From assembly GCA_963798085.1 (NCBI GenBank), contig CAWCRS010000007.1:1440001-1504000 (forward strand): a DNA stretch of 64,000 nucleotides, given 5' to 3'. The translations under genes and the position numbers were made by a program. The notes under the pieces were generated by a model. That model saw only the letters and a list, made by a program, of their open reading frames with translations. It made no database searches and had not been told where the DNA came from. The first letter of the stretch is position 1. Each line of letters opens with the position of its first letter. Source of the stretch: an uncultured Gemmatimonadales bacterium. GTDB taxonomy: Bacteria > Gemmatimonadota > Gemmatimonadetes > Longimicrobiales > RSA9. Positions 1-50,234 of this stretch are shown here, in pieces.

Positions 1-758
1 CAGTCTCTCGCGTGGCGGGTCGATGAACGAAGGGCTGGTGTCGACTCGCCTCGGCCTGATCGGCATTCCCAATGCGGCCGAAGACGTCGATGATCGCGCG
101 CGACCTGATGCTCGCGGAGCTGACCGGCGGCCGCATCCACATCCAGCACGTGTCCACGCAGCGCGGTGTGGAGCTGATTCGCACCGCCCGCGAGCGTGGT
201 GTGCGTGTGTCCGCGGAGGCGACGCCGCACCACTTCACGCTCACCGACGAAGCGGTCGAAGGCTACCGCACGGAAGCCAAGATGAACCCGCCGCTGCGCA
301 CGGCGAGGGACCGGCAGGCCGTAATCGAGGGCGTGGCGGACGGCACGCTCGACGTGATCGCCACGGATCACGCGCCGCACCACTACGACGAGAAGGAGCA
401 GGCCTTCGAGGATGCGCCCTTCGGCATTGTCGGCCTGGAGACAGCGCTGGGGCTGGCGCTCAGCGGGCTGGTGGACACGGGCGTGATCACGCTGGCGCAG
501 CTGGTGGAGCGCATGAGTTGCTCGCCTGCGCGTGCCTTCAAACTGCCCGGCGGCACCCTGCGCATGGGCGCGCCTGCCAATGTCACGGTATTCGATCCGG
601 CGCTGGAATGGACCATCGATGCGGCGCGTTTTCTGTCGAAGAGCCATAACACGCCGTTTGGCGGCCGGCACGTGCGCGGTCGCGCGCTGCTTACCGTGGT
701 GGGCGGCCGCATTGTGTGGGATGCGCAGCCGCACGCCGTGAGCACGACTGCGGGATGA
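1..758 (+). CDS. pyrC: Dihydroorotase, 5' partial, apparent extra-base frameshift near 88
   Basis: MNEGLVSTRLGLIGIPNAAEDV (one frame) continues into IARDLMLAELTGGRIHIQHVST, KMNPPLR and IATDHAPH (other frame). Confidence 0.9.
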
Positions 759-2053
759 GCCCGCGCGCCGCTCTGCCCGGCCCGCGACAATGGATCGGCG
801 AGGCGGAGGCGGCGTGGCCCTCGCCTGAGCGGATCGAACCCGGACAGAGCATCGTCGCCTGCTATGCTGTGCTGGCAGTCCACGCCGCCCGTGCCGCGGC
901 GGGCGATTTCCTGCTCACGCTGGAGCTGAGCGAGGCACGCGGTCGCGTGACCGGCCAGCTCATCACGTCGGAGGCGCCGCCCGACTGGCTGCGTGATGGC
1001 GTGTATGTGGGTGTGCGTGCGACGGCCGAGTCCGGGCCCGACGGAATCCGGCTGGCAATCGAGGAAGTGTCGCCACTGCAGGTGGCGCTCGAGGAGCTGG
1101 CGCTGTTCCTGCCGCGCTCACCCGCCAGCCTGGAAGCGCTCGAGCACGAACTGCAGATGCTCATCGGCGCCGTCCGCGATGTCGGGCTGGCGCAGGTGCT
1201 GTCGCTGCTGCTCGCGGCCGACAGCGAGACCGGGCGCGGCTTCCGGCTGGCGCCCGCGGCCACGCGCAACCACCACGCCTACCTCGGCGGCCTGCTCGAA
1301 CACACGGTTAGTGTAGCCCGCCTGGCAATGGCCGCCGGCGCGCAGTACGGCGCTGCCGTGGATCACGACCTGCTGCTCAGCGGCGCACTGCTGCACGACA
1401 TCGGCAAGGTGCGCGAGATCGGCGCCCAGGCGGGCTTTCCCTACACGGATGAGGGGCGGCTGCTGGGCCACATCCTGCTGGGGCTGCAGATGGTGCGCGA
1501 GGCGGCCGCGCAGACCGGCCTCGACGCCGAACGCCTGCTGCTGCTCGAGCACCTCGTCGCCAGCCATCAGGGTCGCTACGAGTGGCAGAGCCCGCGCGAG
1601 CCGCGCACGCTGGAAGCGCTCATCCTGCATTACGTCGATGACCTCGATGCCAAGGTCAACCAGGCGCTGCGCGTGCTGCACACCGTCGAGCGCGGCTGGA
1701 CCGACTACGACCGCGGGTTCGGTCGCGAGCTGCTGCGCCACGTGCGCCCGCCCGCAGCCGGGCCGGAGCGCATCGCCGGTGCTGAAGCGGCGGCGGACGC
1801 ATCGTCGCCCGCGCCATCGTCCAGAGAACACAGGGAGAAAGGTTCCGGCCGGACACGCGACGGCCGGCGCCGGACAAAGGCGCAGGGTCGGCGCAAAGCG
1901 AAACGGGGAAAGAAGCGCGGCTCCGCGGTGCGTGGCAGGCAGGGATCCGGCACGCGCATGACGCCGGAGCGTGCGCAGCGGGACGGCGGGTCGGCATTGC
2001 CGGGCCACCCCGGCTTCATCGACCGCGATACCCTCGACCTGTTCGCGAGCTGA
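755..2053 (+). CDS. HD-domain protein, YhaM/Cbf1-like 3'-5' exoribonuclease
   Basis: OB-fold-like N-terminus; APAA.RNHHAYLGGLLEHT, LLHDIGK, GHI, SHQG and HYVDDLDAK motifs; ATGA overlap with pyrC. Confidence 0.8.
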   Translation: MSPRAALPGPRQWIGEAEAAWPSPERIEPGQSIVACYAVLAVHAARAAAGDFLLTLELSEARGRVTGQLITSEAPPDWLRDGVYVGVRATAESGPDGIRLAIEEVSPLQVALEELALFLPRSPASLEALEHELQMLIGAVRDVGLAQVLSLLLAADSETGRGFRLAPAATRNHHAYLGGLLEHTVSVARLAMAAGAQYGAAVDHDLLLSGALLHDIGKVREIGAQAGFPYTDEGRLLGHILLGLQMVREAAAQTGLDAERLLLLEHLVASHQGRYEWQSPREPRTLEALILHYVDDLDAKVNQALRVLHTVERGWTDYDRGFGRELLRHVRPPAAGPERIAGAEAAADASSPAPSSREHREKGSGRTRDGRRRTKAQGRRKAKRGKKRGSAVRGRQGSGTRMTPERAQRDGGSALPGHPGFIDRDTLDLFAS

Positions 2054-2067
2054 GACGCAATGCGAAA

Positions 2068-3924: not shown

Positions 3925-4648
3925 GGCGCTGCTGTTCGCGAGCGATGCGCCGCTCAGTGCGGCGGACCTCGCGCGCGTGGATGAGCGTCTCGACGAAGAC
4001 ACGGTTGCGGCCGTGATCGAGGAATTGCGCGCCAGTTACGACAGGGAAGAGCGCGCGTTCTCCATCTATGAAGTGGCGGGCGGCTACCAACTGCTGACGC
4101 GCCCGGACTTCGAGGCGGTGCTCGACCGGTACCAGACTGTACCACAGAGCGGTCGACTGTCGATGCCGGCACTCGAAGTACTCGCCATCATTGCGTTCCG
4201 GCAGCCACTCGGACGCAGCGAAGTCGAAGAGATTCGCGGCGTGCAGTCGAGCGCCGTGCTGCGCACGCTGCAGGAACGGGAGCTGATCGAGCCGGTAGCG
4301 CGCGGCGAAGGCCTGGGCCGGCCCATGCTCTACGCCACCACGAATCGATTCCTCGAGCATTTCGGTTTTCGCTCGCTGGAGGATCTGCCCAGACCGGATG
4401 AGCTTCCCGTCGTTCTGCGTGCGGTGCCACCCGCCGCGGCCGCACTCGCGTTCGCACCGCCCGAGCCGGACGAGCCATCGCCGCTGTCCGAGACCGCGGA
4501 AATCGAGGCGGAGGCGCTGCACCTGCACCTGGCGCCGGCAAGGGAAGACGGCGAGGTGCACGATTGGCCGGTCGAAGACGTGGTTGAATCGATCGTGGCC
4601 ACGGGCGGTGACGCGGGCGACCTGGCCGATGAAGACTCGCCAGCCTGA
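3902..4648 (+). CDS. scpB: Segregation and condensation protein B
   Basis: IVEALLFAS, EVAGGYQL, LEVLAIIAFRQP, GRPMLYATT..FLEHFG. Confidence 0.93.
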   Translation: MRLTQIVEALLFASDAPLSAADLARVDERLDEDTVAAVIEELRASYDREERAFSIYEVAGGYQLLTRPDFEAVLDRYQTVPQSGRLSMPALEVLAIIAFRQPLGRSEVEEIRGVQSSAVLRTLQERELIEPVARGEGLGRPMLYATTNRFLEHFGFRSLEDLPRPDELPVVLRAVPPAAAALAFAPPEPDEPSPLSETAEIEAEALHLHLAPAREDGEVHDWPVEDVVESIVATGGDAGDLADEDSPA

Positions 4649-5442
4649 TGGCCGCGCTGGTCCGTCTGCAGAAGCATCTGGCACGCGCCGGCATTGCTTC
4701 GCGGCGTGCCTCGGAGGCGGTCATCCTCGCGGGCCGCGTCCGCGTCAATGGCCAGGTGGTGCGTGAGCTGGGCACACGCGTCGATCCCGACCATGATGTC
4801 GTGGAAGTCGATGGCCGCCGGCTCGCTGTCCGCCCCGCGCTCTGGATCGCATTGCACAAGCCGCGCGGCTACGTCTGCACGCGCCGCGACCCGCAGCACC
4901 GGCCGACCGTATACTCGCTGCTCCCGCCGGAACACCACGACCTGTTCACGGTGGGCCGGCTGGACGCGGACAGTGAAGGCCTGCTCCTGCTCACGAATGA
5001 AGGCGATGCCGCACATCAGCTCCTGCACCCGCGCTTCGCTGTCGAGCGCGTGTACCTGGCGCAGGTGCAGGGCTCACCCGGCCCGGCTGTGTTGCAGCAG
5101 TTGACCCGCGGCATTCCTCTGGACGACGGCGAGGCGCGCGCACTCTCGGCGCAGCGCGTCAACGGGCGGGGTGGCGAGCGCATCCGCATCGTGCTGGCAG
5201 AAGGACGCAAGCGTGAGGTGCGGCGCATGCTCGAGGCCGTGGGCCATCCCGTGCGCAGACTGCGTCGCATACGCTACGGCCCCATCACGCTGGGCGCGCT
5301 GCCCGCCGGCCGGTGGCGAGCGCTGCGCGCAGACGAGGTCGCGGCGCTGCCTCGACCGAGGACGGATTCGCCGCCCCCGGCGGCAGCCCCTGACGACACA
5401 ACGCGCCCGCAACACGGCATTCCCCGCAACAAGGCAACCTGA
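4648..5442 (+). CDS. rluB: rRNA pseudouridine synthase (RluB/RsuA family)
   Basis: S4 domain RLQKHLARAGIASRR; VGRLDADSEGLLLLTN; follows scpAB. Confidence 0.88.
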   Translation: MAALVRLQKHLARAGIASRRASEAVILAGRVRVNGQVVRELGTRVDPDHDVVEVDGRRLAVRPALWIALHKPRGYVCTRRDPQHRPTVYSLLPPEHHDLFTVGRLDADSEGLLLLTNEGDAAHQLLHPRFAVERVYLAQVQGSPGPAVLQQLTRGIPLDDGEARALSAQRVNGRGGERIRIVLAEGRKREVRRMLEAVGHPVRRLRRIRYGPITLGALPAGRWRALRADEVAALPRPRTDSPPPAAAPDDTTRPQHGIPRNKAT

Positions 5443-10131: not shown

Positions 10132-11117
10132 CACTCGGCTTCGCGAATCCGTGGGCGCTGCTGCTGCTGCTGCTGGTGCCGCTGTGGATCTTCTGGGCGA
10201 AGCGACATCCGGGATCCCTCGTGTTCTCACGCGCCGGCACGCTGCGCCGCGTGGCCGGCGCCGCGGCCGCACGGCTCGCGCGCATGCCCGCATGGCTGCG
10301 CGGTACCGCGCTGGTCGCGCTCATCGTCGCCATGGCGGCGCCGCGCACGGGCGCGTCCGTCGTCGATATCAATGCGGAGGGCATCGCGATCGTCATGGTG
10401 CTGGATATTTCCAGTTCCATGCTGGCGGAGGACTTCGCGCCGCGGAACCGGCTGACCGTGGCCAAGCAGAAGATGGCCGACTTCGTGCGCGGCCGGCAGT
10501 ACGATCGCATCGGCCTGGTGGCGTTCGCGGGTGAAGCCCTCACGCAGGTGCCCATAACAATCGATTATCCGGTCATCTATCAGGCACTGGACCAGCTCCA
10601 GCCGGGCGGGCAGTATCTCGAGGATGGCACCGCGATCGGGACCGCCATCGCCACGGCCGCGAACCGGCTGCGGCGGGCACCCGGCGAATCGCGTGTCATG
10701 ATCCTCATGACCGACGGCGAGAACAACCGCGGCGAGATCGATCCGCTGACCGCCGCACAGGCGGCCGCCGCCTACGGCATCAAGGTGTACACCATCGGCG
10801 TGGGCACGGAGGGCATGGCGCCCATACCGGTGGCCGTGACGCCCTTCGGTCTGCAGTACGCCACGCTGCAGGTGCACATTGATGAGCAACTGCTCACCGA
10901 GATCGCGCATCTCACGGGCGGCCGCTATTTCCGCGCCACGAACGAGATGGCGCTGGACAGCATCTACCACCAGATCAACCGGCTGGAGAAGAGCACGGTG
11001 GACGTGCGGCGCTACACGCAGTATACACCGCGTTATCTGCCTTTCCTGCTGCTCGCCGTGCTGGCGCTGGCCGGGGAATGGTCGCTGCGCGCCAGCCCGC
11101 TGGGTAGGGTGCCATGA
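10128..11117 (+). CDS. batA: VWA domain protein BatA
   Basis: FANPWALLLL, LDISSSM MIDAS, DRIGLVAFAG, GTAIG, LMTDGENN. Confidence 0.9.
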   Translation: MTLGFANPWALLLLLLVPLWIFWAKRHPGSLVFSRAGTLRRVAGAAAARLARMPAWLRGTALVALIVAMAAPRTGASVVDINAEGIAIVMVLDISSSMLAEDFAPRNRLTVAKQKMADFVRGRQYDRIGLVAFAGEALTQVPITIDYPVIYQALDQLQPGGQYLEDGTAIGTAIATAANRLRRAPGESRVMILMTDGENNRGEIDPLTAAQAAAAYGIKVYTIGVGTEGMAPIPVAVTPFGLQYATLQVHIDEQLLTEIAHLTGGRYFRATNEMALDSIYHQINRLEKSTVDVRRYTQYTPRYLPFLLLAVLALAGEWSLRASPLGRVP

Positions 11118-22977: not shown

Positions 22978-23922
22978 ATGCTGCCGCGAACCGCCGACGC
23001 GCTGGTGATCACCGGGCCCACCGCGACGGGCAAGACTCGCCTGGCCATTGCCGTGGCGCGCACCCTGGGCGGCGAAGTGGTCTCGATGGACTCGCGCCAG
23101 ATCTATCGCGGCATGGACATTGGCACCGCCAAGCCCACCATTGCCGACCGACTGGGCGTGCCGCACCACGGCTTCGACGTGGTCACGCCCGACGAGCGCT
23201 ACAGTGCCGGCCGCTTCGCCCGCAATGCCACGGCCTGGATGGACGCGATCCGCAGACGCGGCCAGGTACCCATACTGGCAGGCGGCACCGGCTTCTACCT
23301 GCGGGCGCTCACCTCGCCGCTTTTCGTCGAGCCGGCCATGGATGCGGAACGCAGGCGGGCGCTGCGGGCTTTACTGGAAGGCCGGGACACGCAGACGCTG
23401 CGCGCCTGGGTGCACACGCTCGAGCCCCAGCTGGAGCTGGGGGAATGGGGTGGTGGCGGACGGCAGCGCCTGCTGCGCCGCATTGAAGTGGCACTGCTGA
23501 CGGGACGCACGCTGTCGTGGTGGCAGGCGCAGCGCCCGGCGCGACAGCCGATGACGGCAAAGGTTTTCGTGCTCGAGCTGCCGCGCGACGAACTGGTGCG
23601 CCGCATCGACGCGCGCGTGCTCGACATGGTGGGCCGGGGGCTGCAAGATGAGGTGCGCGGGCTGCTGACAGCGGGTTATGATGCGCACGACCCGGGCATG
23701 AACGCCACCGGCTATGCCGAGTTCGTGCCCTGCTTCACGGGCGAGCGATCGCGCGAGGAAGCCATCCGCCTGACGCAGGCGGCAACACGCCGTTATGCGC
23801 GCCGGCAACTCACGTGGTTCCGGCATCAGCTCGAGCCGGGCGCCATCCGGCTGGACGCGACCGGGCCGTTCGACATTCTCGCAGCACGCATCATCAACGA
23901 GTGGCAGGCAGACGAATGCTGA
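22978..23922 (+). CDS. miaA: tRNA dimethylallyltransferase
   Basis: GPTATGKT, DSRQIYRGMDIGTAKP, GGTGFY, TRRYARRQLTWF. Confidence 0.96.
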   Translation: MLPRTADALVITGPTATGKTRLAIAVARTLGGEVVSMDSRQIYRGMDIGTAKPTIADRLGVPHHGFDVVTPDERYSAGRFARNATAWMDAIRRRGQVPILAGGTGFYLRALTSPLFVEPAMDAERRRALRALLEGRDTQTLRAWVHTLEPQLELGEWGGGGRQRLLRRIEVALLTGRTLSWWQAQRPARQPMTAKVFVLELPRDELVRRIDARVLDMVGRGLQDEVRGLLTAGYDAHDPGMNATGYAEFVPCFTGERSREEAIRLTQAATRRYARRQLTWFRHQLEPGAIRLDATGPFDILAARIINEWQADEC

Positions 23923-25040
23923 AGATCGGCATCAGCTGTTATCCGGTGTACGGCGGCTCGGGCGTGGTCGCTACCGAGCTGGGCATCGAGCTGGCCCGGC
24001 GAGGCCACGAGGTGCATTTCATTACGTACGCGCAGCCTTTCCGGCTGCCCTACTTCGTGGACCGCATCTACTACCACGAAGTGGAAGTGCCCACCTACCC
24101 GCTGTTCGAGCATCCGCCCTACAACCTGGCGCTCTCCGTGTTCATCCATAATGTCACGGTGCAGCACGGGCTCGACCTGGTGCACGCGCACTACGCGGTG
24201 CCGCACGCCACCTCGGCGTGGCTGGCCAAGCAGATGCTCGGAAGACCCGATTTCCGCATTGTTACCACACTGCACGGCACGGACATCACGCTGATCGGCC
24301 AGGACCCGTCCTACCGGCCCATTACCCAGTTCTCCATTCGCCAGTCGGACGGGCTGACAGCCGTTTCCGAGTACCTGCGGCGCGAGACCATCGAGCACTT
24401 CAATGTGGCGCCCGAATCGATCCGCGTGATTCCCAATTTCGTCGACCTCGAGAAGTACAAGCGCAGCGCATACGCGTGTCTGCGCAGCAAGTTCTCGCTG
24501 GAAGGCGAGAAGATCGTCACGCACATCTCGAATTTCCGCTCCGTGAAGCGCGTGGAGGACGTGGTGGGCGTGTTCGCGCGCCTGGCGGCGCAGGTGCCGG
24601 CCCGTCTGCTGCTCGTCGGGGATGGCCCCGAGCGCGTGCGCGCACAGGAGCAGGCTCTGGCCTTCGACATTGTCGATCGCGTGCTGTTCCTGGGCAAACA
24701 GAACTCCGTTGCCGAGCTGCTCGCGTGCACCGACCTGTTCCTCCTGCCCAGCCACTCGGAAGCCTTCGGGCTGGTGGCGCTGGAAGCGCTGGCGTGTGGT
24801 GTGCCCGTGATCTCCAGCAACGTCGGAGGATTGCCGGAAGTGATGCCCCCGCCACCCGCGGGCCACATGCTGCCCGTGGGCAATGTGGCGGGCATGGCCG
24901 CTGCCGGGTTGCCGCTGCTTCAGGACGCGGAGCTGTGGGCGCAGGCCAGCGCACAGGCCAGACACGCGGCGGAACGCTTCAGCGCGGACACCATCGTTCC
25001 CATGTACGAGCGCTACTACGAAGAGGTACTGGCGACGTGA
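23916..25040 (+). CDS. bshA: N-acetyl-alpha-D-glucosaminyl L-malate synthase (GT4)
   Basis: KIGISCYPVYGGSGVVATELG, HAHYAVPHA, TTLHGTDIT, HISNFR.VKR, EAFGLVALEA. Confidence 0.9.
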   Translation: MLKIGISCYPVYGGSGVVATELGIELARRGHEVHFITYAQPFRLPYFVDRIYYHEVEVPTYPLFEHPPYNLALSVFIHNVTVQHGLDLVHAHYAVPHATSAWLAKQMLGRPDFRIVTTLHGTDITLIGQDPSYRPITQFSIRQSDGLTAVSEYLRRETIEHFNVAPESIRVIPNFVDLEKYKRSAYACLRSKFSLEGEKIVTHISNFRSVKRVEDVVGVFARLAAQVPARLLLVGDGPERVRAQEQALAFDIVDRVLFLGKQNSVAELLACTDLFLLPSHSEAFGLVALEALACGVPVISSNVGGLPEVMPPPPAGHMLPVGNVAGMAAAGLPLLQDAELWAQASAQARHAAERFSADTIVPMYERYYEEVLAT

Positions 25041-25927: not shown

Positions 25928-26733
25928 CCGACGAACTTGCCCTGGACGCGTGGGAAACACAGCCCGTCGCGCACTGGCAGGCCGTCTGGCGCATTCCTGC
26001 GCTCTTCGCGTACGCTGCCGTAGCCTCCACCAACGACATCGCCATGCGCCTCGCCGGACAGGGTGCTGCGGCCGGCACGACCGTGCTCGCCGACCGCCAG
26101 ACCGCCGGCCGCGGCCGCGCGGGCAGGGAATGGCGCGACACGCCGGGCGGCAGTCTCCTGGTTTCCGTGATCCTCCGTGCAACCGCGATCACGGACTCCA
26201 GCATCATGCCGCTGCGCGTGGGGCTGGCGGCGGCGCAGGCCATCGAGAACGCGTGCGGCACGCGCGTTGGCATCAAGTGGCCCAACGATCTGATGCTGCC
26301 CGCGGGCGGCAAGGTGGGCGGCATCCTCTGTGAAGGCAGCGCGGGCGCGCACGGGACCATCGTCGTGGCCGGGATCGGCATCAACGTCCATCAGGAAGGC
26401 GACGACTTCGCTCCCGAGATCCGCGCGCACGCGACGTCCCTGCGCATGGCCGGCCGCGCGCCGGCCAGGTCTGCGCTGCTGGGTGCGCTGCTCGAGGAAC
26501 TGCGGCCCTTCACGGTAGCGGCGCCACCACTGGAGACGACCGCGCTCGCCGGCCTCGCGGCGCGCAATGTGCTGCGCGGCCGCACCATCACGGTGGACGG
26601 CGCCGTGGCGGGCCTCGCGGATGGTGTGGCGGCGGACGGCACGCTGCGCCTGCGCACCGGTGTAACAGTGCGTTATCTGCGCTCCGGCACCGTTCGCCTG
26701 GCCGGCGCAGCCCACCCCTCTGGCCTGACCTGA
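25924..26733 (+). CDS. birA: Biotin--protein ligase (no HTH domain)
   Basis: STND, QTAGRGRAGREW, IKWPNDL, KVGGILCE, GIGINV. Confidence 0.93.
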   Translation: MTDELALDAWETQPVAHWQAVWRIPALFAYAAVASTNDIAMRLAGQGAAAGTTVLADRQTAGRGRAGREWRDTPGGSLLVSVILRATAITDSSIMPLRVGLAAAQAIENACGTRVGIKWPNDLMLPAGGKVGGILCEGSAGAHGTIVVAGIGINVHQEGDDFAPEIRAHATSLRMAGRAPARSALLGALLEELRPFTVAAPPLETTALAGLAARNVLRGRTITVDGAVAGLADGVAADGTLRLRTGVTVRYLRSGTVRLAGAAHPSGLT

Positions 26734-26751: not shown

Positions 26752-27543
26752 ATGATCCTGGCGATCAATGTGGGCAACACGGAAACCGTACTCGGTCTCT
26801 TCCACGAGCACGAACTGCTGGCGCACTGGCGCTACGCCACCGCTCCGGAACGGACCGTCGACGAGCTTGGCCTGCTCGTGCGCGGCCTGCTGCGCGAAGC
26901 GGGCTACAATGCCGGCGACACCGAAGCCGCCGTCATCGCGTCCGTTGTGCCGCCCGTGACGCCGGCGCTGGTGCAGATGTGCAGGCAGTACCTGAACGCC
27001 GATACGCTGGTCATCAATGCCACCATCCCGCTGCCCATCCAGCTGGCGGTGGATGAGCCGCTCACCGTCGGGGCGGACCGCATTGCGAACACGCTGGCCG
27101 CGTCCGTGCTCTACCAGCGCGATACCATCGCCGTCGACCTGGGCACCGCCACCACGTTCGACTGCATCTCCGCCGAAGGTGTTTTCCTGGGCGGCATCAT
27201 CAGCCCGGGCGTGCACACGGGCGCGGAGACGCTCGTACGACGGACCGCGAAACTGCCGCGCATCGATCTGGAGAAACCCGCCGCGGTGATCGGCAAACGC
27301 ACCGAGACCGCGTTGCGCAGCGGCATCTTCTACGGCGCGGTCGAGGCCATCAATGGCATCGTGCGGCGCATCCAGGAAGAGTGGGGACGCAAGGCATTCG
27401 TGGTCGCGACGGGCGGCCTGGCGCCGCTGATCGGTCCGCACTGCGTTACCGTCGATCACGTCGAAGCGCACCTCACGCTGTTCGGGCTGGAGCACGCGTG
27501 GCGCTACGTCAGCGACGCCGGCCAGCATCCGGAAATGGGCTGA
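26752..27543 (+). CDS. coaX: Type III pantothenate kinase
   Basis: LAI(N)VGNT, ASVVP, VGADR, VDLGTATTFD, GGIISPG, ATGG; follows birA. Confidence 0.93.
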   Translation: MILAINVGNTETVLGLFHEHELLAHWRYATAPERTVDELGLLVRGLLREAGYNAGDTEAAVIASVVPPVTPALVQMCRQYLNADTLVINATIPLPIQLAVDEPLTVGADRIANTLAASVLYQRDTIAVDLGTATTFDCISAEGVFLGGIISPGVHTGAETLVRRTAKLPRIDLEKPAAVIGKRTETALRSGIFYGAVEAINGIVRRIQEEWGRKAFVVATGGLAPLIGPHCVTVDHVEAHLTLFGLEHAWRYVSDAGQHPEMG

Positions 27544-35695: not shown

Positions 35696-37621
35696 ATGCA
35701 GAGCCACATGATCGAGATCCGTCTGCCGGACGGCAAAGTCCTCGAGATGGAGTCGCCCACGACTGCGCGCCGCGTGGCGGAGCGCATTGGTCCGGGCCTG
35801 GCACGCGCCGCCATCGCGGCGCGCACGAATGGCAACATCATCGAGCTGGATCGACCGATCGAGTCGAGTACGGGACTCGAGATTCTGACCGAGCGCAGTC
35901 CGCAGGCGCTCAATGTGCTGCGTCATTCCGCCGCGCACGTACTGGCCACGGCCGTGCGACAGGTGCGGCCAGGCGCGGGCATTGGCTTCGGTCCGTCCAT
36001 CCAGGACGGGTTCTACTACGACTTCGAGGTGGATCATCCCTTCACGCCGGATGAGCTGGAGCGCATCGAGACCGCCATGCGTGAGGTGGCCGGTCACAAT
36101 GATGCGTTTGAACGCCGCGCAGTCACGAAGCAGGAGGCGAGAGAACTGTTCGCCGACGATCCGCTGAAGCTGGAGCGACTGGAAGAGCTGGGGCCGGATG
36201 AGGTCATCACCGTCTATCGCAACGGCCCGTTCCTCGATCTGTGCCGCGGGCCGCACGTGCCCTCCACGGGCTACGTGAAGCATTTCAAGCTGCTCCATAC
36301 GGCGGGCGCGTACTGGCGGGGCGACGAACACCGGCAGATGCTGCAGCGCATCTACGGCACGGCGTGGTTCAACCAGAAAGACCTCGACGAATACCTCGAG
36401 CGACTGGAGGAGGCGCGTCGTCGCGATCATCGCGTGCTGGGCACTGCGCTCGACCTGTTCTCCGTCGATCAGCGCGTGGGCCCGGGCCTGATTCTGTGGC
36501 ATCCCAGAGGCGCGATCATACGCAGCGAGATCGAGAACTACGAGCGCGAGCTGATCGTGCGCCACGGCTACGACCTGGTGTACACGCCGCACATCGTGAG
36601 CGAGAAGCTGTTCGAGATCTCGGGCCATCTGGAGAATTTCCGCGAGAACATGTTCGGCGCCATGGAAGTGGAGGGCGCGAAATACCGGCCCAAGCCCATG
36701 AACTGTCCGGGGCACATCGCCATCTACCAGTCACGACAGCGCTCCTACCGCGACCTGCCGCTGCGCTACGCCGAGTTCGGCACCGTCTACCGCTACGAGC
36801 GCAGTGGCGTGCTGCACGGGATGCTGCGCGTGCGCGGTTTCACGCAGGACGACGCGCACGTGTTCTGCACGCCGGAGCAGGTGCCGCAGGAGATCGCGCG
36901 GCTGCTCGACCTGGTGCACGAGATGCTGCAAACATTCGGTTATCCGTACACCATCGAGCTGTCCACCATGCCGGCCAAGGCACTGGGCACGGAGGCGCAG
37001 TGGCGCCACGCCGAGAAGCAGCTGGCGGCGGTGCTGGAGGGCAGGGAACAGGCGTACGAGCTGGACGAAGGTGGCGGCGCGTTCTACGGACCGAAGCTCG
37101 ACTTCAAGCTGATCGACGCGATCGGCCGCAAATGGCAGGGGCCCACCGTGCAGCTGGACTTCAACCTGCCGGAGCGGTTCGCGCTCGAGTACGTGGGCGA
37201 GGACAACAGCCGGCACCAGCCCGTGATGCTGCACCGCGTGCTGGTGGGTTCCATGGAGCGCTTCGTGGGCGGGCTCATCGAGCATTACGCCGGCGCATTC
37301 CCGCTGTGGCTGGCTCCCGAGCAGGTGCGCGTGCTGGCCATCACGGATGAAGTGCTGGGCAGTGCCGAAGCCCTGGACGCGGAGCTGCGCGCCGCCGGAC
37401 TGCGCTCGGGTCTCGACCGCCGCTCGGAGACGCTCAACTACCGCATCCGCGATGCCGAGACGCACAAGGTGCCGTACATGGCTGTCGTCGGTCCGCGGGA
37501 GGCGGCCCAGGGCACCGTGGCCGTGCGCCGGCGAGGCGCGGGCAACAAACAGGAAGTCATGTCACGGGAACTGTTCCGCGCGCGGCTGCTGGGGGAGGTC
37601 CGGAGTCGCAGCCTGGGCTGA
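35696..37621 (+). CDS. thrS: Threonine--tRNA ligase
   Basis: TGS domain, LRHSAAH, DLCRGPH, RDHR, KPMNCPGH, RVRGFTQDDAH, GAFYGPK. Confidence 0.98.
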   Translation: MQSHMIEIRLPDGKVLEMESPTTARRVAERIGPGLARAAIAARTNGNIIELDRPIESSTGLEILTERSPQALNVLRHSAAHVLATAVRQVRPGAGIGFGPSIQDGFYYDFEVDHPFTPDELERIETAMREVAGHNDAFERRAVTKQEARELFADDPLKLERLEELGPDEVITVYRNGPFLDLCRGPHVPSTGYVKHFKLLHTAGAYWRGDEHRQMLQRIYGTAWFNQKDLDEYLERLEEARRRDHRVLGTALDLFSVDQRVGPGLILWHPRGAIIRSEIENYERELIVRHGYDLVYTPHIVSEKLFEISGHLENFRENMFGAMEVEGAKYRPKPMNCPGHIAIYQSRQRSYRDLPLRYAEFGTVYRYERSGVLHGMLRVRGFTQDDAHVFCTPEQVPQEIARLLDLVHEMLQTFGYPYTIELSTMPAKALGTEAQWRHAEKQLAAVLEGREQAYELDEGGGAFYGPKLDFKLIDAIGRKWQGPTVQLDFNLPERFALEYVGEDNSRHQPVMLHRVLVGSMERFVGGLIEHYAGAFPLWLAPEQVRVLAITDEVLGSAEALDAELRAAGLRSGLDRRSETLNYRIRDAETHKVPYMAVVGPREAAQGTVAVRRRGAGNKQEVMSRELFRARLLGEVRSRSLG

Positions 37622-38597: not shown

Positions 38598-38610
38598 GGA
38601 GGAGGCTGTC

Positions 38611-39149: not shown

Positions 39150-40184
39150 ATGCCGGCGAATGATTCTCTGATCGACCAGATCACCGCGCTGCAGGCGGAA
39201 GCCGAACAGGCGGTTAGTGCGGTGCGCACGGAAGCGGAGCTGGAGGTGGCACGGGTCCGCTTCCTCGGGCGCAAGGAAGGCCGCCTCACGGCCATCATGC
39301 GCGGCCTGGGCAGCCTGCCCGCGGAAGCGCGACCGGCGGTGGGCGAAGCCTCCAATCGCGCGAAACAGCATATAACAGAACTGCTGGACGCGGCTGCGGC
39401 GCGCATCGGTGCGGGCGGCCCGAGCGCGGGTGCACGGCTGGACCTCACGCTGCCGGGCCGTCACGCCTGGACGGGAGGGCGGCACCCGGTCACCCTCGTG
39501 ATCGACGAGATCTGTCGCGTCCTGGGCGACCTGGGCTTCACCCGTGCACGCGGCCCGGAAGCGGAGACCGACTGGTACAACTTCGTCGCCTTGAACACGT
39601 CGCTGGACCATCCGGCGGCGGACATGCACGACACGTTCTACCTGGCGCCCGGCGTGCTGCTGCGCAGTCACACCTCGCCGGTGCAGATCCGCACCATGCA
39701 GCAGTATCAGCCGCCCATCCGGATTCTGGCGCCGGGCATGTGCTACCGGCGCGACCCGTTCAATGCCTCGCACGCGCCCGCCTTCGAACAGCTCGAGGGA
39801 CTGGCCGTGGACGAAGGCATCACCTTCGTCGACTTCAAGGCGACGATCGCCGAATTCGCGCGCGGTCTGTTCGGGCCGGAAACACGCGTGCGCTTCCGCC
39901 CATCGTTCTTTCCGTTCACGGAGCCCTCCGCCGAGGTGGATGTCAGTTGCATCATCTGCCGCGGGCGAGGCTGCAGTGTGTGCAAGGGCACGGGCTGGCT
40001 CGAGATCATGGGCTCCGGCATGGTGCATCCGAAGGTGCTGGAAACCGTGGGTTATGATGCCGGGCGCTACACCGGTTTCGCCTTCGGCATGGGCCCGGCG
40101 CGCATTGCGCTCGTGCGCTACGGCATTCCCGATATCCGCCTGCTCTACGAAGCGGACACGCGCTTCCTCGAGCAGTTCGTGTGA
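39150..40184 (+). CDS. pheS: Phenylalanine--tRNA ligase alpha subunit
   Basis: HPAADMHDTF, LRSHTSPVQIR, FRPSFFPFTEPS, GFAFGMG. Confidence 0.98.
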   Translation: MPANDSLIDQITALQAEAEQAVSAVRTEAELEVARVRFLGRKEGRLTAIMRGLGSLPAEARPAVGEASNRAKQHITELLDAAAARIGAGGPSAGARLDLTLPGRHAWTGGRHPVTLVIDEICRVLGDLGFTRARGPEAETDWYNFVALNTSLDHPAADMHDTFYLAPGVLLRSHTSPVQIRTMQQYQPPIRILAPGMCYRRDPFNASHAPAFEQLEGLAVDEGITFVDFKATIAEFARGLFGPETRVRFRPSFFPFTEPSAEVDVSCIICRGRGCSVCKGTGWLEIMGSGMVHPKVLETVGYDAGRYTGFAFGMGPARIALVRYGIPDIRLLYEADTRFLEQFV

Positions 40185-40188
40185 TGCC

Positions 40189-42868: not shown

Positions 42869-43185
42869 GCGAGCCCGTTCGTCGCACGGTCGTCACCGTA
42901 CAAATCGCCGGAGAAGACTACACGATCCGCACGGACGAAAGCGACGAGTACACACGCGACTGTGCTCGCTTCGTGGATCGCACGGTGCGCGACATTATCG
43001 AGGGCGCGACCTCGCTGCCGCCGCACAAGGCTTCCGTCCTCGCCGCGATGGCCATCACGGACCAGCTGTTCAAGGCGCAGCGCGAGGCGGAAACCGCGCG
43101 CGCCGCGGCGGCGGGCCGGGCAAGGGCGTTGACGGCCGAGATCGCGCGACACCTCGAGCCGGGCAGCCTTGCGACCGCTTCCTGA
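42865..43185 (+). CDS. zapA: Cell division protein ZapA
   Basis: VTVQIAGEDYTIR, VLAAMAITDQLF; pheT-zapA-rny synteny. Confidence 0.88.
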   Translation: MSEPVRRTVVTVQIAGEDYTIRTDESDEYTRDCARFVDRTVRDIIEGATSLPPHKASVLAAMAITDQLFKAQREAETARAAAAGRARALTAEIARHLEPGSLATAS

Positions 43186-43310
43186 GCCGCCCTACCTTGC
43201 CGCTGCGGCGCTCCCTTCCGCGAGCGCGGCCAATTGTAGTGCGGGGGCCGTATTGATGATGGCCGGACGTCGCCTTCCCGAGGCGCCCCGGGCGCCTTTC
43301 TGGAGAGATC

Positions 43311-44876
43311 ATGAACGCACCGATGCTGATCGGCGTGTGGGCCGTCGGCGCGGGTCTGCTTGGCATATTGCTGGGCTGGAGGCTGGAACGGCTCCTGCTC
43401 AAGCGCGTGCAGGCGGACGCGGAGTCCGTCGCTCAACGCATTCGACAGAACGCTGAAGCAGATGCCGATCGGCTGCGTCTCGCAGCCGAACTGTCCGGCA
43501 AGGAAGAAGCACTCCGCTCCCGCGAGGAATGGGAGCACGAAGAAACCCGGCGTCGCGAAGAAGTCGACCGCGCCGAAGCCAGGCTGGACGAGCGACGCAC
43601 GTCGCTCGATCGCAAGTTCGATATCCTCGACGAAAAAGAGCGGTCTCTCGAGCAGCACGAATCCGCGCTCAATGCGCGGCAGGATGAACTCGAGAAACAG
43701 GCGACGGAGAATCGTCGCCTGACCAGCGAAATTCGCCTGCGTCTGGAAGCCCTCGCCGGGATGACGTCCGAGGAAGCGCGCAAGCGGCTGCTGCAGGAAC
43801 TCGAGGAAGAAGCGCGCGCGCGCGCCGCCAACATGATCCGCGAGATCAAGGAAAACGCCAAGCGCGAGGCCGACCGCGAGGCGCGCAACATTCTCTCCCT
43901 CGCCATTCAGCGCATTGCCGCGGATCACACGGCGGAGAGCACCGTGTCCGTGGTGAGTCTGCCATCGGACGAGATGAAGGGCCGCATCATCGGGCGGGAG
44001 GGCCGCAACATCCGCGCGTTCGAGCAGGCCACCGGCATCGACGTCATCATCGACGACACACCCGAAGCCGTGATCCTTTCCGGCTTCGATCCGATCCGCC
44101 GCGAGATCGCGCGACTGTCGCTGGAAAAACTGGTTGCCGACGGTCGCATCCATCCGGGTCGCATCGAGGAAGTCGTCGACAAGAGCCGCAAGGAAGTCGA
44201 CGAATCAATGCTGCGCTCGGCTGAAGAAGTGTGTTATCAGATGGGCGTACACGGCGTGCACCCGGAGATCATGAAGGTGCTGGGCCGCCTCAAGTTCCGC
44301 ACGTCGTACGGGCAGAACCAGCTGCTGCACGCCAAGGAAGTGGCCATGCTGGCCGGCAACATGGCGGCCGAGATGGGGCTGAACGCCACCATCGCGAAGC
44401 GGGCCGGGCTGCTGCACGATGTGGGCAAGGGCCTGACGCACGAGCACGAAGGCACGCACGTCGAGCTGGGCTGGTCTCTCTGCAAGCGCTACAACGAGCC
44501 GGACCAGGTGCTCAACGCCATCAAGGCGCACCACGACGAGGAGCCGCACCGCTACGCGGAAACGTTCCTCGTGACCGCAGCCAATGCGGTGAGCGGTGCG
44601 CGGCCGGGTGCTCGTCGCGAGATGTTCGAAACCTACGTGAAGCGGCTGGAGAAGCTCGAGGAGATCGCCAACGGTTTCGATGGCGTGGAGCGCTGCTTCG
44701 CCATTCAGGCGGGCCGGGAAGTGCGCGTCATGGTGAATCCCGAAAACGTCGACGACGTGCGCATGACCGAGTTGAGCGACCAGATCGCGCGCCGCCTCGA
44801 GGAGGAGCTGCAATACCCGGGTCAGATCAAGGTGGTCGTGATCCGGGAAACGCGTGCGGTGGACTTCGCGCGTTGA
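43311..44876 (+). CDS. rny: Ribonuclease Y
   Basis: TM anchor, coiled coil, KH domain [17 protein letters not shown] domain [15 protein letters not shown]. Confidence 0.97.
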
Positions 44877-44976
44877 GCCACGGCGCACGGCGGCCGTCGG
44901 GCAGGTTGCGCTATGACAGTTCTGTTGCCGGCGCGCGTCGTCGCCTGCGAACCAAGATGCGTCAGCGATTCGGAGC

Positions 44977-45900
44977 ATGGCGAAAGTAATCAGCGGCCAC
45001 GAGATCAGTGAGGTGATGCGCGCGGAGATCGCCGACGAGGCGACCGCCTTCCGTGCGGGCACCGGTCAGCTGCCCTGCCTTGCGGTCGTGCTGGTGGGCG
45101 AAGATCCGGCGAGTCAGGTGTACGTGCGCATGAAGGGCAAGGCGGCCGAGAAGGCAGGCTTCGCCTCGCGCACCATGGTGCTGCTGGCGAACACTTCGGA
45201 GGATGAGCTGCTGGGCGTGGTCGCCGGGCTCAACGCGGACCCTGATGTGCATGGCATCCTCGTGCAGCTCCCGGTGCCGAAGCACATCGATACCCAGAAG
45301 GTGCTGCGCAGCATTGACCCGGCCAAGGACGTGGACGGCTTCCATCCGCTCAACGCCGGTGCCCTGGCCAGTGGCGACCTCAACGTGCTCGCGCCCTGCA
45401 CGCCCGCCGGCATCATCGAAATGCTGATGCGTTCCGGCTACGATCCGCGCGGTCAGCACGTCGTGATAACAGGGCGTTCGACCATTGTCGGCCGGCCCGT
45501 CGCCATGCTGCTGCTGCGCGATGCACCGGGCGGCAACGCCACGGTGACCGTGGCGCACTCGCGCTCGCGTGACCTGGGCGCCATCACGCGGCAGGCGGAC
45601 ATCCTCATCGCGGCCGTGGGCAAGCCCGAGCTGATCCGGCGCGACATGGTCAAGCCGGGCGTGGTGGTGATCGACGTGGGCGTGAACCGCGTGGACGATG
45701 CGTCGTCGCCCAGAGGCTATCGCCTGGTGGGTGATGTCGCGTACGACGAAGTGGCGGAGGTAGCCGAGGCCATATCGCCCGTGCCCGGTGGCGTGGGTCC
45801 CATGACCATCACCATGCTGCTCCGCAACACGCTCGAGGCGGCGCGCCGGCTGCACGCGAGTGGCGCGCTCGCCGATCCTGCCACGGCGGGAGGTGGATGA
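44977..45900 (+). CDS. folD: Methylenetetrahydrofolate dehydrogenase/cyclohydrolase
   Basis: GILVQLP, KDVDGFHP, PCTPAG, GRSTIVGRP, PVPGGVGPMT. Confidence 0.97.
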   Translation: MAKVISGHEISEVMRAEIADEATAFRAGTGQLPCLAVVLVGEDPASQVYVRMKGKAAEKAGFASRTMVLLANTSEDELLGVVAGLNADPDVHGILVQLPVPKHIDTQKVLRSIDPAKDVDGFHPLNAGALASGDLNVLAPCTPAGIIEMLMRSGYDPRGQHVVITGRSTIVGRPVAMLLLRDAPGGNATVTVAHSRSRDLGAITRQADILIAAVGKPELIRRDMVKPGVVVIDVGVNRVDDASSPRGYRLVGDVAYDEVAEVAEAISPVPGGVGPMTITMLLRNTLEAARRLHASGALADPATAGGG

Positions 45901-47127
45901 GCGACGCCCATGCACCCGGGCCTGCGCGCCGGAGCGGCGGGCCACCGCGCGCGGCCGGCTGGTCGCTGGGCGGCGCACGGCCCGAAGCGTACACGGTCTC
46001 GGCGGTCAACGCGCTGGCAAAGGAACTCCTCGAGAGCAGCATCCCGCCGCTCTGGATCGAAGGCGAAGTAACCGGCTGGAAGCGACACCCCTCCGGACAT
46101 TGCTGGTTCGCGCTGCGCGATCGCAGTGCACAGCTGCGCGCGGTGATCTTCCGCGCCGAATGCGCAGCAGCTGCCTGCCGAACCGGAAGAAGGCATGAAG
46201 GTGCGCGCGCTGGGCCGGCTGACCCTGTACGAGGCGAGAGGCGAGTATCAGTTCGTGGCGCGCACCATCGAGGGCCTGGGCGCCGGCGGACTGTGGCGCA
46301 TCGCCTTCGACCGTCTGCACCGCAAGCTCGATGCTGAGGGACTGTTAGCGCCCGAACGCAAGCGTGCCCTGCCGCCGTTTCCTTCTGTCGTGGGCGTGGT
46401 CACCTCACCCGTGGGCGCGGCACTGCACGACATACTGCGCGTGATCACGCAGCGCGCACCGTGGACGCGCGTGCTGCTCTCACCGGCCCGGGTGCAGGGC
46501 GACGGCGCACCATCGGACATCGCGCGCGCCATTCGGCTTCTCGGCAGGGCCGGACTCGCCGACGTCGTCATTGTCGGGCGGGGCGGCGGCTCGCTCGAAG
46601 ATCTCTGGGCGTTCAATGATGAGGTTGTAGCCCGCTCCATCGTCAACTGCCCCGTGCCGGTGATCAGCGCGGTGGGTCACGAGGTCGATGTCACGATCGC
46701 GGATCTGGTCGCGGACTGGCGCGCGCCCACGCCATCGGCTGCGGCCGAGCGCGCCGTCCCCGATGGCCGTGCCGTGGCGCGTGACCTGGCGCGCCAGGAT
46801 CAGCGGCTGCGCCTCGCGCTGCAGCGCTGGGTGGCGGCCCGCCGCGACTGGCTCGGCGGGATGCGCGAATCCCTGCTCGCCGTTGCGGATGACCTGGTCC
46901 TGCGCCGGCGTGAACGCGCGGGTCACCTGGCCGCCCGGCTGAACGGTGTATCACCGCTGGCCGCGCTCGAGCGCGGCTTCGCCGTGCCGGTCGGGGAAAG
47001 CGGACACGTACTGCGCAGCACAGGCGAATTCGCGGGCGGCCGGCCTTTCCAACTCCGTGTTAAGGATGGCACCGTGCCCTGTCGCGCGGAAACCGTGGAC
47101 GCCGCCGCGCGTAGAGAAGTGCCATGA
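45897..47127 (+). CDS. xseA: Exodeoxyribonuclease VII large subunit, frameshift near 46160
   Basis: LWIEGEV, SGHCWFALRD; then GVVTSP.GAA, RGGGSLEDLWAFNDE, SAVGHE.D, RAPTPS. Confidence 0.93.
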
Positions 47128-47366
47128 GCACGCCCGTGGAAGCGACGACGCTGGAGCAGCGGCTGGCGCGCATCGAGGCCATCGTCTCGCGGCTGGAGAG
47201 CGACCGCCTCGAGCTGGACGATGCGCTGGCACTGTTCGAGGAAGGCGTCACCCACCTGCGCGCGGCCGAACGGATGCTGGCGGAGGCGGAACTGCGTATC
47301 GAGCGGGTGGTGGCGGCGGAGCGCGGCGGCATCCTCGTCGAGCGCATTACGCCGGAGCCCGAGTGA
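47124..47366 (+). CDS. xseB: Exodeoxyribonuclease VII small subunit
   Basis: LEQRLARIEAIVSRLES..LELDDALALFEEG. Confidence 0.93.
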   Translation: MSTPVEATTLEQRLARIEAIVSRLESDRLELDDALALFEEGVTHLRAAERMLAEAELRIERVVAAERGGILVERITPEPE

Positions 47367-48283
47367 TGGCCGTCGCGGCGACGCGCGCATACGCGCAGAG
47401 CGTCATGGCGGAGGAGCGTGTTCGCGTGGAGGAAGCGCTCGCGCGGCTGCTCGCGGCGCGCGTCGACGCGCTGCCAGCCGGGCTGGCCGAGCCCGTGCGT
47501 TACGCGCTGCAGGCAGGCGGCAAGCGGCTGCGCCCCGTGCTCGTGGTCAGCGCGTATCGCGCAATGCGTGAGTGCCAGAGCGCTGCGCTGTATGACGCAG
47601 CCTGCGGCATCGAGGTGCTGCACACCTATTCGCTGCTGCACGACGATCTGCCGTGCATGGACAACAATGACCTGCGCCGCGGCCACGCCACCACGCATCG
47701 CGTATTCGGCGTGCGTCGCGCCACGCTGGCGGGCGCCCTGATGATCCCGCTTGCCTGCGCGGCGCTGGAGCGTGGTGCCGCGGCTCTGGGCCTGGGCGGC
47801 ATCGCGAGGGCGCGCGTGGTGCGTGAACTCACCGGCGCAGCGGGCGCTGCCGGCATGGTCGGCGGGCAGCTGCTGGACCTGGCCGCGGAAGGTGAGGCCG
47901 TGAGCCTGCCGGAGCTCCAGGCGATTCACGCGCGCAAGACGGGTGCGCTGTTCGCCGCCTGCCTGCGCATCGGTGCTCGCCTGGCCGAAGCCGACGAATC
48001 GACCATTGACGCGTTCGGTCGCTGCGGCCGCTCGCTGGGCCTGGCGTTTCAGGTAATGGACGACGTGCTCGATGTTACGGGAGACGCCCACGCGCTGGGC
48101 AAGACGGCGGGACGGGACCGCGAAAACGGCAAGGCGACCTACCCGTCCCTCATGGGTGTGGCGGCGGCCAGGGCGGAAGCCGCGCGCGCTGCGCGCGAGA
48201 GCGTGGCCGCGCTGCACGGCGCCGGCATTCACGCCGTGGCACTGGAAAGCCTGGTCGAGTTCGTCGTGGATCGCGACCGCTGA
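47366..48283 (+). CDS. ispA: Polyprenyl (farnesyl) diphosphate synthase
   Basis: GGKRLRP, HTYSLLHDDLPCMD, GMVGGQ, KTGALF, LAFQVMDD. Confidence 0.93.
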   Translation: MAVAATRAYAQSVMAEERVRVEEALARLLAARVDALPAGLAEPVRYALQAGGKRLRPVLVVSAYRAMRECQSAALYDAACGIEVLHTYSLLHDDLPCMDNNDLRRGHATTHRVFGVRRATLAGALMIPLACAALERGAAALGLGGIARARVVRELTGAAGAAGMVGGQLLDLAAEGEAVSLPELQAIHARKTGALFAACLRIGARLAEADESTIDAFGRCGRSLGLAFQVMDDVLDVTGDAHALGKTAGRDRENGKATYPSLMGVAAARAEAARAARESVAALHGAGIHAVALESLVEFVVDRDR

Positions 48284-48322
48284 TAATCCGATGTTATACC
48301 TGCGCGTTCACAGGAGGCGCTC

Positions 48323-50234
48323 GTGGCGCTGCTCGAATGCGATAGAGAGCCCGGAAGATGTGCGGCGGCTGCGGCCGGACCAGCTGCCGCAGCTGGCGGC
48401 GGAGGTGCGGGAGCGCATCATCGACGTCATCAGCCACCTGGGCGGTCATTTCGCGCCCGGCCTGGGCGTGGTCGAGCTGACGGTGGCGCTGCACTACGTG
48501 TTCGACACGCCGCGCGACCGGCTCATCTGGGACGTGGGGCACCAGGGCTATCCGCACAAGATCCTCACGGGCCGCAACCGCGGCTTCGAGCGCATTCGCC
48601 AGCGCGGCGGTCCCTCGGGGTTTCTCAGCCGCGGCGAGTCGGAATACGACGTGTTCGGCGCGGGCCACGCGGCCACGTCCATCTCCGCCGCGCTGGGCAT
48701 CGCCGCGGCGCGAGACCTGAAGCACGAGGACTTCGGCGTGGTCGCTGTCATCGGCAATGGTGCGCTCACCAGCGGCATTGCCTACGAAGCGCTCAACAAT
48801 GCGGGCCACACGAATCACGCACTGACGGTGATCCTGAATGACAACGAGATGTCGATCTCGCGTAATGTCGGCGCCATGCACAAGTATCTCACGGCCCTGG
48901 TCACCAACCCGATCTACAACCGGGTGCGCAACGAGATCAAGAATCTGATCCACCGCACCAACAGCTCGATGGTCGAGTCCATGTTGTTGAAGCTGGAGGA
49001 GAGCGCCAAGGGCTTCCTCACGCCCGGCACGCTGTTCGAGGAGCTGGGCTTCCGCTACGTCGGTCCCATCGATGGCCATGATCTCGACGCGCTGGTGCAT
49101 ACGCTGCGCAGCGTGCGCACCTGGAAGACGCCCACGCTGGTGCACGTGCTGACACGAAAGGGCAAGGGCTTTCCGCTGGCGGAGGAGAATCCCGTCGTGT
49201 GGCACGGCGCCACGCCCTTCGACAAGATCAGCGGCGAGATGGCCAAGAAGAAGGGTGGACCGCCGGCCTATACCAACGTGTTTGGCAAGGCGCTGGTGGA
49301 GCTGGGCGCGCAGCATCCGGGAATGGTCGTGATCACGGCGGCAATGCCGTCCGGCACCGGCACCGTTCCCTTTGCTGATGCGTATCCGGATCGCTACTTC
49401 GACGTGGGCATCGCCGAGGGACACGGCGTGACGTTCGCAGCCGGACTTGCGACGGAAGGCATGCGACCCGTCGTCGCCATCTATTCGACGTTCCTGCAGC
49501 GCGCCTACGATTCGATCGTGCACGATGTGATGATCCAGAAGCTGCCCGTGGTGTTCGCCATGGACCGCGCCGGATTGGTGGGCAATGATGGGCCCACGCA
49601 CATGGGACTCTATGACATTGCGTATCTGATGGCGCTGCCCGGGTTCACGGTCACTGCGCCGCGCGATGGCGCCGAGCTGGCGGCGCTTCTTCGCCTGGGT
49701 ATCGAGCAGGATCACGGCCCCTTCGCGCTGCGCTATCCGCGCGACAACGCGCCCGCCGCCGTGCCGCCGGTGGACGAGATTCCGCGCATCGAGTACGGCA
49801 CGTGGGAGGTGCTGCGGCCGGGTGAAGGCGTGGCCATCCTGGCGGTCGGCACCATGGTGCTGCCCGCGCTGGAAGCCGCGCGCCAGCTGGAAGCGGAGGG
49901 CCTGGGCGTGAGTGTCGTGAACTGCCGCTTCCTCAAGCCTGTCGACGAGCGCACGCTGGCGTGGGTCCTCGCGCACCATGGCGCGGTGCTCACCGTGGAG
50001 GAGGGCACCGAGGTCAACGGCTTCGGCGCGGCCATGGCGGCGCGCTGCGAACACGCGCGTTCGCATGGTCACGGCCCGCTCGTCGACGTGATGGGTGTGC
50101 CGGACCGCATCATCGAGCACGCCAGCCGCGATGAGCAGCTGAAGGAAGTCGGTCTCACGGCGGCTGACATTGCGCAGCGGGCGCGCACGCTGGCAGGGGC
50201 GGTGCGCATGCCGGCTGTGCGCGAGACCGCCTGA
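48323..50234 (+). CDS. dxs: 1-deoxy-D-xylulose-5-phosphate synthase, frameshift near 48336
   Basis: AGGAGG SD then GTG; GGHFAPGLG, WDVGHQ, NDNEMSI, DVGIAE, IYSTFLQRAYD, DGPTH. Confidence 0.96.

Follow-up and report, generated by a model that had tools for sequence, protein, structure and literature searches.

Modified bases are known to leave errors in nanopore assemblies. In the accessible portions of the reports concerned, G-to-A and C-to-T errors confined to one strand are described, in a pattern that cannot give the type or the position of the mark (PMC11610603); C/G-to-T/A errors occur in Salmonella with N6-methyladenine (6mA) one base away, and in Neisseria indels fall at or beside methylated bases (PMC12506013); the same class of error is described in two further publications (PMC10687267, PMC11170131). 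Here we analyze a stretch of 64,000 nucleotides (the window) from an uncultured Gemmatimonadales bacterium (GCA_963798085.1; G000:C7:1440001-1504000 in our numbering), in which codons for conserved aspartate (Asp) read as asparagine (Asn), each time with CAATG in place of CGATG. We consider it probable, at roughly 0.7, that the DNA of the cell reads CGATG (Asp) at such sites, that the A arose as an error in the consensus of a long-read assembly, most likely a nanopore one, and that the mark behind it is most likely 6mA in G(m6A)TG within the wider motif VGATG, the likeliest writer being a solitary D12-class adenine methyltransferase encoded elsewhere in the genome. The errors resemble those reported for nanopore data (Hammerhead, PMC11610603; Modpolish, PMC10687267; PMC12506013; PMC11170131) in their motif-bound G>A/C>T changes, partial penetrance, indels, position one base from a (here putative) 6mA and lineage-specific pentanucleotide motif. 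They differ in having been read from finished assemblies through a plus-strand bias, and neither CGATG nor VGATG is among the published motifs in the portions of those reports available to us.

Two-domain methyltransferases of the FokI type (GGATG/CATCC; represented by a Dam-family gene on plasmid NZ_PP589684.1) share with the enzyme considered here the D12 class and, in their N-terminal half, 34% identity; the latter, however, has a single domain, lacks the CATCC-strand domain, has no identified endonuclease and is conserved in a setting of housekeeping genes, and the error motif is VGATG-like instead of strictly GGATG. Dam and CcrM are conserved orphan adenine methyltransferases that act on palindromes and mark both strands. 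The D12 enzyme is likewise solitary, lineage-wide and accompanied by shared neighbours, but its inferred site is asymmetric, so that one strand would be marked. Finally, the site of a methyltransferase that produces 5-methylcytosine (5mC) at CATCGATG holds both CATCG and CGATG, according to the available part of its description (PMC11954522); that site, however, is an 8-bp palindrome modified by C5 chemistry, no such flank is seen here, and the other genomes that carry the signature described below lack a C5 enzyme. Although the class of error is known, no publication was found that ties CGATG, VGATG or an orphan methyltransferase of the Gemmatimonadota to it, with REBASE, subscription journals and supplements lying beyond the search.

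Asparagine codons at conserved aspartate positions

The assembly comprises 6.23 Mb in 12 contigs of up to 1.9 Mb, with 67% G+C and a rated completeness of 90%. The preliminary description of the window had listed 11 Asp-to-Asn changes in a C-AAT-G context, and all of them hold: each coordinate is an AAT in C-AAT-G, in frame in the gene named, and aligned relatives carry Asp at 11/11 sites and Asn at 0/11. The miscalled pentanucleotides, all on the plus strand, lie at 578..582 in an amidohydrolase gene (90-758, formerly taken for pyrC; Asp in 1/1 relatives, and in 2/2 with more relatives), at 23223..23227 in miaA (isopentenyl pyrophosphate (IPP) transferase, residue 83; 2/2), at 24881..24885 in a GT4 glycosyltransferase gene (formerly bshA, residue 323; 2/2, then 3/3) and at 26565..26569 in birA (residue 215; 1/1, a single relative being aligned). 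In coaX, encoding type III pantothenate kinase, they affect the N-terminal Asp (26766..26770, residue 6; 7/7) and residue 201 (27351..27355; 6/6), and they recur in thrS (35911..35915, residue 73; 4/5, with one Glu), pheS (39761..39765, residue 205; 6/6, then 8/8), rny, encoding RNase Y (44582..44586, residue 421; 10/10, then 12/12), the first Asp-rich motif of ispA (47665..47669, residue 101; 9/10, with one Ala) and the GDG motif of dxs (48755..48759, residue 133; 10/10, then 12/12). The identities of these genes come from gene calls and Pfam matches. A further probable miscall, absent from the first list, lies at 10370..10374 on the plus strand (Asp in 3/4 relatives), and weaker candidates lie at 12389, 16383 and 16668 (one or two relatives each). 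Genuine Asn residues also occur in the C-AAT-G context (e.g. 22100, 40975, 46615, 48798 and 50671); AAT codons for conserved Asn had already been noted in arguing against a reassigned codon.

The predicted enrichment of these changes by context is much stronger than chance would allow. In a comparison of 576 orthologue pairs from 354 genes (identity of at least 55%, local identity of at least 7/10), AAT was found at Asp-conserved columns in 49/325 C-RAT-G contexts versus 13/844 other contexts (Fisher p=8e-18), the share being 38/203 with CGATG on the file plus strand and 11/122 with it on the file minus strand. The reverse test gave values near zero, with A at 0/125 motif columns in G001, a genome of the same genus, and at 5/326 for all relatives pooled. 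Ser-to-Leu changes at xCA-TYG were seen at 7/47 positions within the motif versus 0/676 outside it, and Arg-to-Cys/Trp changes at CAT-YGx at 0/26; false stops at CAT-TGA were considered as well and set aside, being found at 1/27 positions, with no enrichment. A longer or bipartite motif, such as a type I site or CATCGATG, was likewise rejected, given that flank tables are flat beyond about four bases.

The conversion is partial, CGATG/CATCG still being common in the whole genome (29,924 versus 15,736 for CAATG/CATTG). An initial estimate of 27% conversion, equal at silent and missense sites, was rejected as too high, and the argument for an absence of selection that accompanied it as too simple: the estimate was inflated because C-ATT-G is naturally in excess in G001 (166/1030 versus 80/1306) and because the genes of the window lie mostly on the error-prone strand. 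The same comparison qualifies the proposal that C-ATT-G codons are a silent mirror of the change, which in plus-strand genes turn out to be largely natural, with T also found at 4/4 CATTG words in the eight listed long records of the independent run described below. A natural excess of ATT in C-ATY-G over x-ATY-G was observed in the many-contig genomes G001, G004, G006, G007 and G008 (odds ratio (OR) about 2-17), and in whole-genome counts it does not track the presence of the methyltransferase.

File-strand asymmetry

Codon counts were taken from 4,265 of the 4,865 genes called by a hexamer model, namely those with a score above 40. The Asn share of C-RAT-G is 0.387 in plus-strand genes and 0.265 in minus-strand genes, and the T share of C-ATY-G is 0.291 and 0.403, respectively (p=5e-49 and 2e-54), control contexts being equal on both strands. 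Word counts along the file plus strand agree, with 9,082 CAATG versus 6,654 CATTG and a matching deficit of CGATG (13,802 versus 16,122). The direction is the same in 12/12 contigs, one of which (C11) holds very few sites, and in 34/34 bins, of which 13 have a positive and 21 a negative GC skew. In strand-split counts CAATG is the most asymmetric 5-mer, although plain Markov k-mer scans do not rank it first; with the motif masked, no 4- to 7-mer exceeds an absolute z of about 4, and there is neither strand asymmetry at CCWGG nor an error signal at CATG.

Since the orientation of a contig is arbitrary, this asymmetry cannot come from a cell. The changes are therefore an artefact and not biology, because they follow an arbitrary file strand and hit invariant catalytic Asp residues, and reads that split by strand and are settled by a consensus program could give rise to such a pattern. 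For mismatches limited to the reads of one strand, the bias of the consensus is an indirect sign. From the strand difference, G000 contains a floor of about 2,300-2,400 false substitutions; the two strand-specific fractions above (38/203 and 11/122), less background, put the number probably at about 4,000-4,700. False frameshifts amount to at least about 200. As a separate observation, CTAG and GAGCTC are strongly depleted genome-wide (observed/expected ratios of 0.17 and 0.33), symmetrically on both strands.

Inserted bases and the wider motif

Besides substitutions, the errors include inserted A residues that shift reading frames. In xseA (45897-47127) an extra A turns CGATG into CGAATG at 46157..46162 on the plus strand and splits the gene between two frames; without base 46159 a single open reading frame (ORF) of 409 aa results, the two halves of which match the XseA OB-fold and Exonuc_VII_L in Pfam. 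A second insertion of the same kind lies between ispA and dxs (48334..48339, plus strand). Among 1,132 candidate +1 frameshifts in the genome, AGAATG (94 versus 6.6 expected), CGAATG (88 versus 11) and GAGATG (53 versus 9.7) are strongly enriched, in both gene orientations, and CAGATG (22 versus 9.8), GGAATG (21 versus 10) and TGAATG (13 versus 6.1) more weakly so; GAATC, GAATT and GAATA stay at background. As the detector works by heuristics and overlooked the break in xseA, the numbers given are minimum values and the edge of the motif is uncertain. Another candidate motif for insertions, CTGAG (68 sense versus 11 antisense), was discarded as an effect of the detector at stop codons.

Substitutions are confined to CGATG, none being found at AGATG or GGATG. 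Taken with the insertions, this suggests a mark at VGATG, or possibly GATG, with the type of error set by the 5' base; GGATG may be included, as GAGATG and GGAATG suggest, but CGATG and AGATG are affected as much or more. The motif first proposed, CGATG, thus stands for the substitutions and is too narrow for the errors as a whole. Further split housekeeping genes (HisF-like, inositol-monophosphatase-like and amidohydrolase) occur at C5:166487-167742 and C5:181848-183116 and are likely to reflect additional frameshift errors. The type I locus on contig C3 (about 930000-939000) is in many fragments, with HsdM in two pieces and HsdR in several, and holds many xGAATG/xAGATG words.

Comparison with an independent run

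Contigs of run X1, labelled as a soil metagenome, could be aligned over 35600-55599 of the window, a stretch with 26 CAATG among 3,291 A and 10 CGAATG/CATTCG; runs X2 and X3 matched next to none of the sequence words and gave no usable cover, and no RNA run was among those listed as matching. The library of X1 is not on record, its depth is 2.5-5, and the counts of agreement given below refer to the eight long records listed. At 49343 and 55507, each the first A of a CAATG, X1 has G instead (two of the four A-to-G differences). The former is a silent CAATG for CGATG in dxs (49342..49346, plus strand) and the sole difference in a 295-base X1 contig, and the latter, also silent, lies in a minus-strand gene (55506..55510, plus strand). 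Both one-base gaps (2/2) remove a base from CGAATG, at 46159 and 48336, that is, at the two insertions described above.

These data bear on two readings in which the A is real. Motif-specific G>A hypermutation by deamination, fixed in the organism, would fit the natural C-ATT-G excess of the relatives and the agreement of X1 with the assembly at 7/8 CAATG/CATTG words in the listed records. Mutation cannot depend on file orientation, however, essential catalytic Asp residues are affected, the A insertions are absent from X1 and no evolutionary footprint tracks the D12 gene; we regard this reading as extremely improbable. Alternatively, a genomic A might be corrected by A-to-I editing of mRNA, since by the logic of the genetic code an AAT codon edited to IAT would be decoded as Asp. 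Yet the change is also found in genes encoded on the opposite strand (Ser-to-Leu, silent Ile) and at silent positions, in both gene orientations, it follows the file strand, and X1, a DNA run, carries G at two sites, leaving editing with a probability that verges on the negligible. The preliminary description had favoured a base-calling artefact linked to DNA modification, by an enzyme encoded elsewhere, over recoding, mutation or editing, and that preference is upheld.

Distribution in the family and order

CAATGT was counted by strand in 251 genomes of the order, those with at most 40 contigs being termed few-contig. It is asymmetric (z of at least 4.0) in exactly eight of them, G000, G010, G013, G046, G051, G065, G087 and G102, which belong to seven genera of a single family; z ranges from -2.2 to 2.1 in the other 65 genomes of that family and from -2.7 to 2.6 in 178 genomes of other families. 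When CGATGT counts are added, z is 4.7-17.5 in the eight, 0.7 in G036 and -2.0 to 2.8 in the 64 many-contig family genomes. One of the eight, G087, consists of a single contig, so that a replication bias would cancel. AGAATG shows no strand asymmetry across the family genomes. Unpublished genomes (G015, G016, G043, G147, G020 and G101) are included in the family and order tallies, among them the z range of the many-contig genomes, and neither the eight signature genomes, nor G036, nor the orthologue alignments rest on them.

The eight signature genomes are all the few-contig genomes of the family with an orthologue of the D12 enzyme (57-70% identity), and G036, the sole few-contig family genome lacking one, has no signature. 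The possibility that the methyltransferase leaves a footprint in evolution was also considered: fetched stretches gave a pooled OR of 3.3 with the gene versus 1.35 without it, and the idea was dropped for want of support in whole-genome counts, where 51 versus 9 many-contig genomes differ with p=0.10 in the opposite direction.

The other seven signature genomes (95-98% complete) yield a PF00145 match in 0/7 and a PF01555 match in 1/7. The mark is probably 6mA and not a modified cytosine because these seven lack C5 enzymes and six of them lack enzymes of the N4/N6 family. A modified cytosine in CATCG (4mC, 5mC or another mark) called as T had been the original proposal, and it retains some arguments: since a C>T change is seen as G>A from the opposite strand, a consensus cannot tell which of the two carries the mark, the part of PMC12506013 available documents C/G>T/A errors at 5mC, and G000 encodes a C5 methyltransferase as well as a Mod of type III, a kind of enzyme of which some DPPY-type members make m4C according to the portion of PMC8259958 at hand. 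Against it stand the Pfam counts just given, the symmetry of CCWGG and the pairing of the C5 gene with an EcoRII-C endonuclease. The cytosine is thus not supported as the modified base, and we hold this alternative to be decidedly improbable.

Candidate methyltransferases

G000 encodes five systems that could be considered, namely a cytosine-C5 methyltransferase (contig C11), a type III Mod/Res pair (C8), the fragmented type I locus (C3), a type IIG-like enzyme (C1) and the solitary D12 enzyme (contig C5). Methyltransferases were therefore found elsewhere in the genome, as anticipated, and the candidates shared by the signature genomes are adenine methyltransferases.

The D12-class enzyme (C5:177724-178788, 354 aa) matches PF02086 with E=1.4e-26 and 94 bits, against a cut-off of 22, and its motif I and catalytic DPPY are intact and conserved in alignment. 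Orthologues occur in 62/72 family genomes, with distant matches (33-42%) in 6/178 genomes of the other two families, and the gene lies in a shared housekeeping synteny in most of 12 loci, where no endonuclease was identified within about 1.5 kb on each side, a few neighbouring ORFs being without a match. The protein has more than 2,000 homologues at E<=1e-40, and a PDB sequence search with it returned no match. It is 34% identical to the N-terminal half (residues 7-335) of a 675-aa two-domain methyltransferase that adjoins a FokI-domain endonuclease, and it covers positions 1-327 of 646 in a PADLOC model. Related single-domain enzymes recognise CATG. Because of these relatives, and with no CATG signal here, homology does not fix the site of the D12 enzyme; it would favour a site of the form xxATG, 34% identity being too low to settle specificity. 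For comparison, GGATG is given as the recognition site of the N-terminal half of M.FokI, and AGATG as a star site, in the part of the report available (PMC3985630).

The same artefact and the same 6mA mark could instead be due to the type IIG-like methyltransferase (C1:262758-266126, 1,122 aa, NPPW motif), which has Eco57I/MmeI-type domains and is followed, within the locus C1:262758-269680, first by an ORF of 215 aa and then by a helicase-like gene. Enzymes of type IIG typically methylate their asymmetric sites on one strand, and this protein is found in 61/72 family genomes, including all eight signature genomes, and in 0/178 elsewhere. It is, however, also present in the few-contig G036 (48% identity), which lacks the signature, and nothing links it to xGATG, the D12 enzyme being the one that groups with GGATG-strand methyltransferases; we consider it an unlikely writer. 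The IIG-like locus is unusually stable for one of defence type.

The type III pair (C8:328243-333298) is complete, and systems of this type modify short asymmetric sites on a single strand, as stated in the available portion of PMC8259958, so that it might write a mark on the asymmetric 5-bp CGATG. Its Mod was not found with this query in 18 family relatives, including the signature genomes G010 and G013, and six signature genomes lack PF01555; the occurrence of the signature in genomes without Mod largely refutes this very improbable candidate. The region C8:328243-337430 holds, in addition to the pair, a further ORF and an SNF2 helicase with DrmD as its best score. The C5 methyltransferase, fused to a helix-turn-helix (HTH), and its adjoining EcoRII-C endonuclease (C11:1610-4544) lie on an 8.6-kb contig of lower G+C, on which CAATG is in excess just as it is elsewhere in the genome.

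Discussion

The sequence of events that we propose begins with a mark on one strand, for which N6-methyladenine in G(m6A)TG, inside VGATG, is the likeliest identity. Reads from that strand would carry either an A in place of the G immediately 5' to the mark (in CGATG) or an additional A (AGAATG, CGAATG, GAGATG), and reads of the other strand would be correct. The consensus would then settle a near-tie wrongly at about 19% of plus-strand and about 9% of minus-strand CGATG sites, over a background of 1-3%. The writer would be the D12 enzyme, as a homologue of the GGATG-strand half of FokI-type methyltransferases.

Of this account, the data show the artefact, the motif of the errors and the co-occurrence with the gene. 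Several points weigh against the rest. The evidence is drawn from finished assemblies; the platform is one that we infer from the 12 long contigs and the types of error, and which base is modified, where it lies and what writes it are inferred as well. The family genomes are kin and not independent samples, the IIG-like enzyme is present in all eight signature genomes, and only G036, with a platform not established from 240 kb, separates the two adenine methyltransferases. For the wider motif the basis is the number of insertions scored by the heuristic detector of frame breaks, substitutions being seen at CGATG only. Moreover, X1 matches the assembly at 3/4 CAATG and 4/4 CATTG words in the eight listed long records, none of the listed records covers the five named sites within 35600-55599, and the X1 contigs are shallow and differ from the assembly elsewhere too.

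The fault recurs in no fewer than seven other public genomes of the family. Before any biology is read into apparently dead catalytic residues or split genes in such genomes, the sequence should be inspected for CAATG/CATTG and MGAATG contexts. That all 12 contigs carry the signature lends mild support to the integrity of the bin, and file-strand k-mer asymmetry offers a cheap screen for methylation motifs in catalogues of long-read genomes.

For the family itself, we tentatively suggest that the D12 enzyme, homologues of which are labelled Longimicrobiales, may be a housekeeping, single-domain, FokI-like orphan methyltransferase with no restriction partner that marks one strand of the asymmetric VGATG throughout the genome. 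Such a mark would resemble those of Dam and CcrM while remaining permanently one-sided, and its motif, perhaps like the motifs of further lineages that resist culture, would be readable from strand-biased k-mer counts in public long-read assemblies, with no need for the reads. With the errors comes a first motif that can be tested for this orphan methyltransferase, itself uncharacterised, of a soil family about which little is known.

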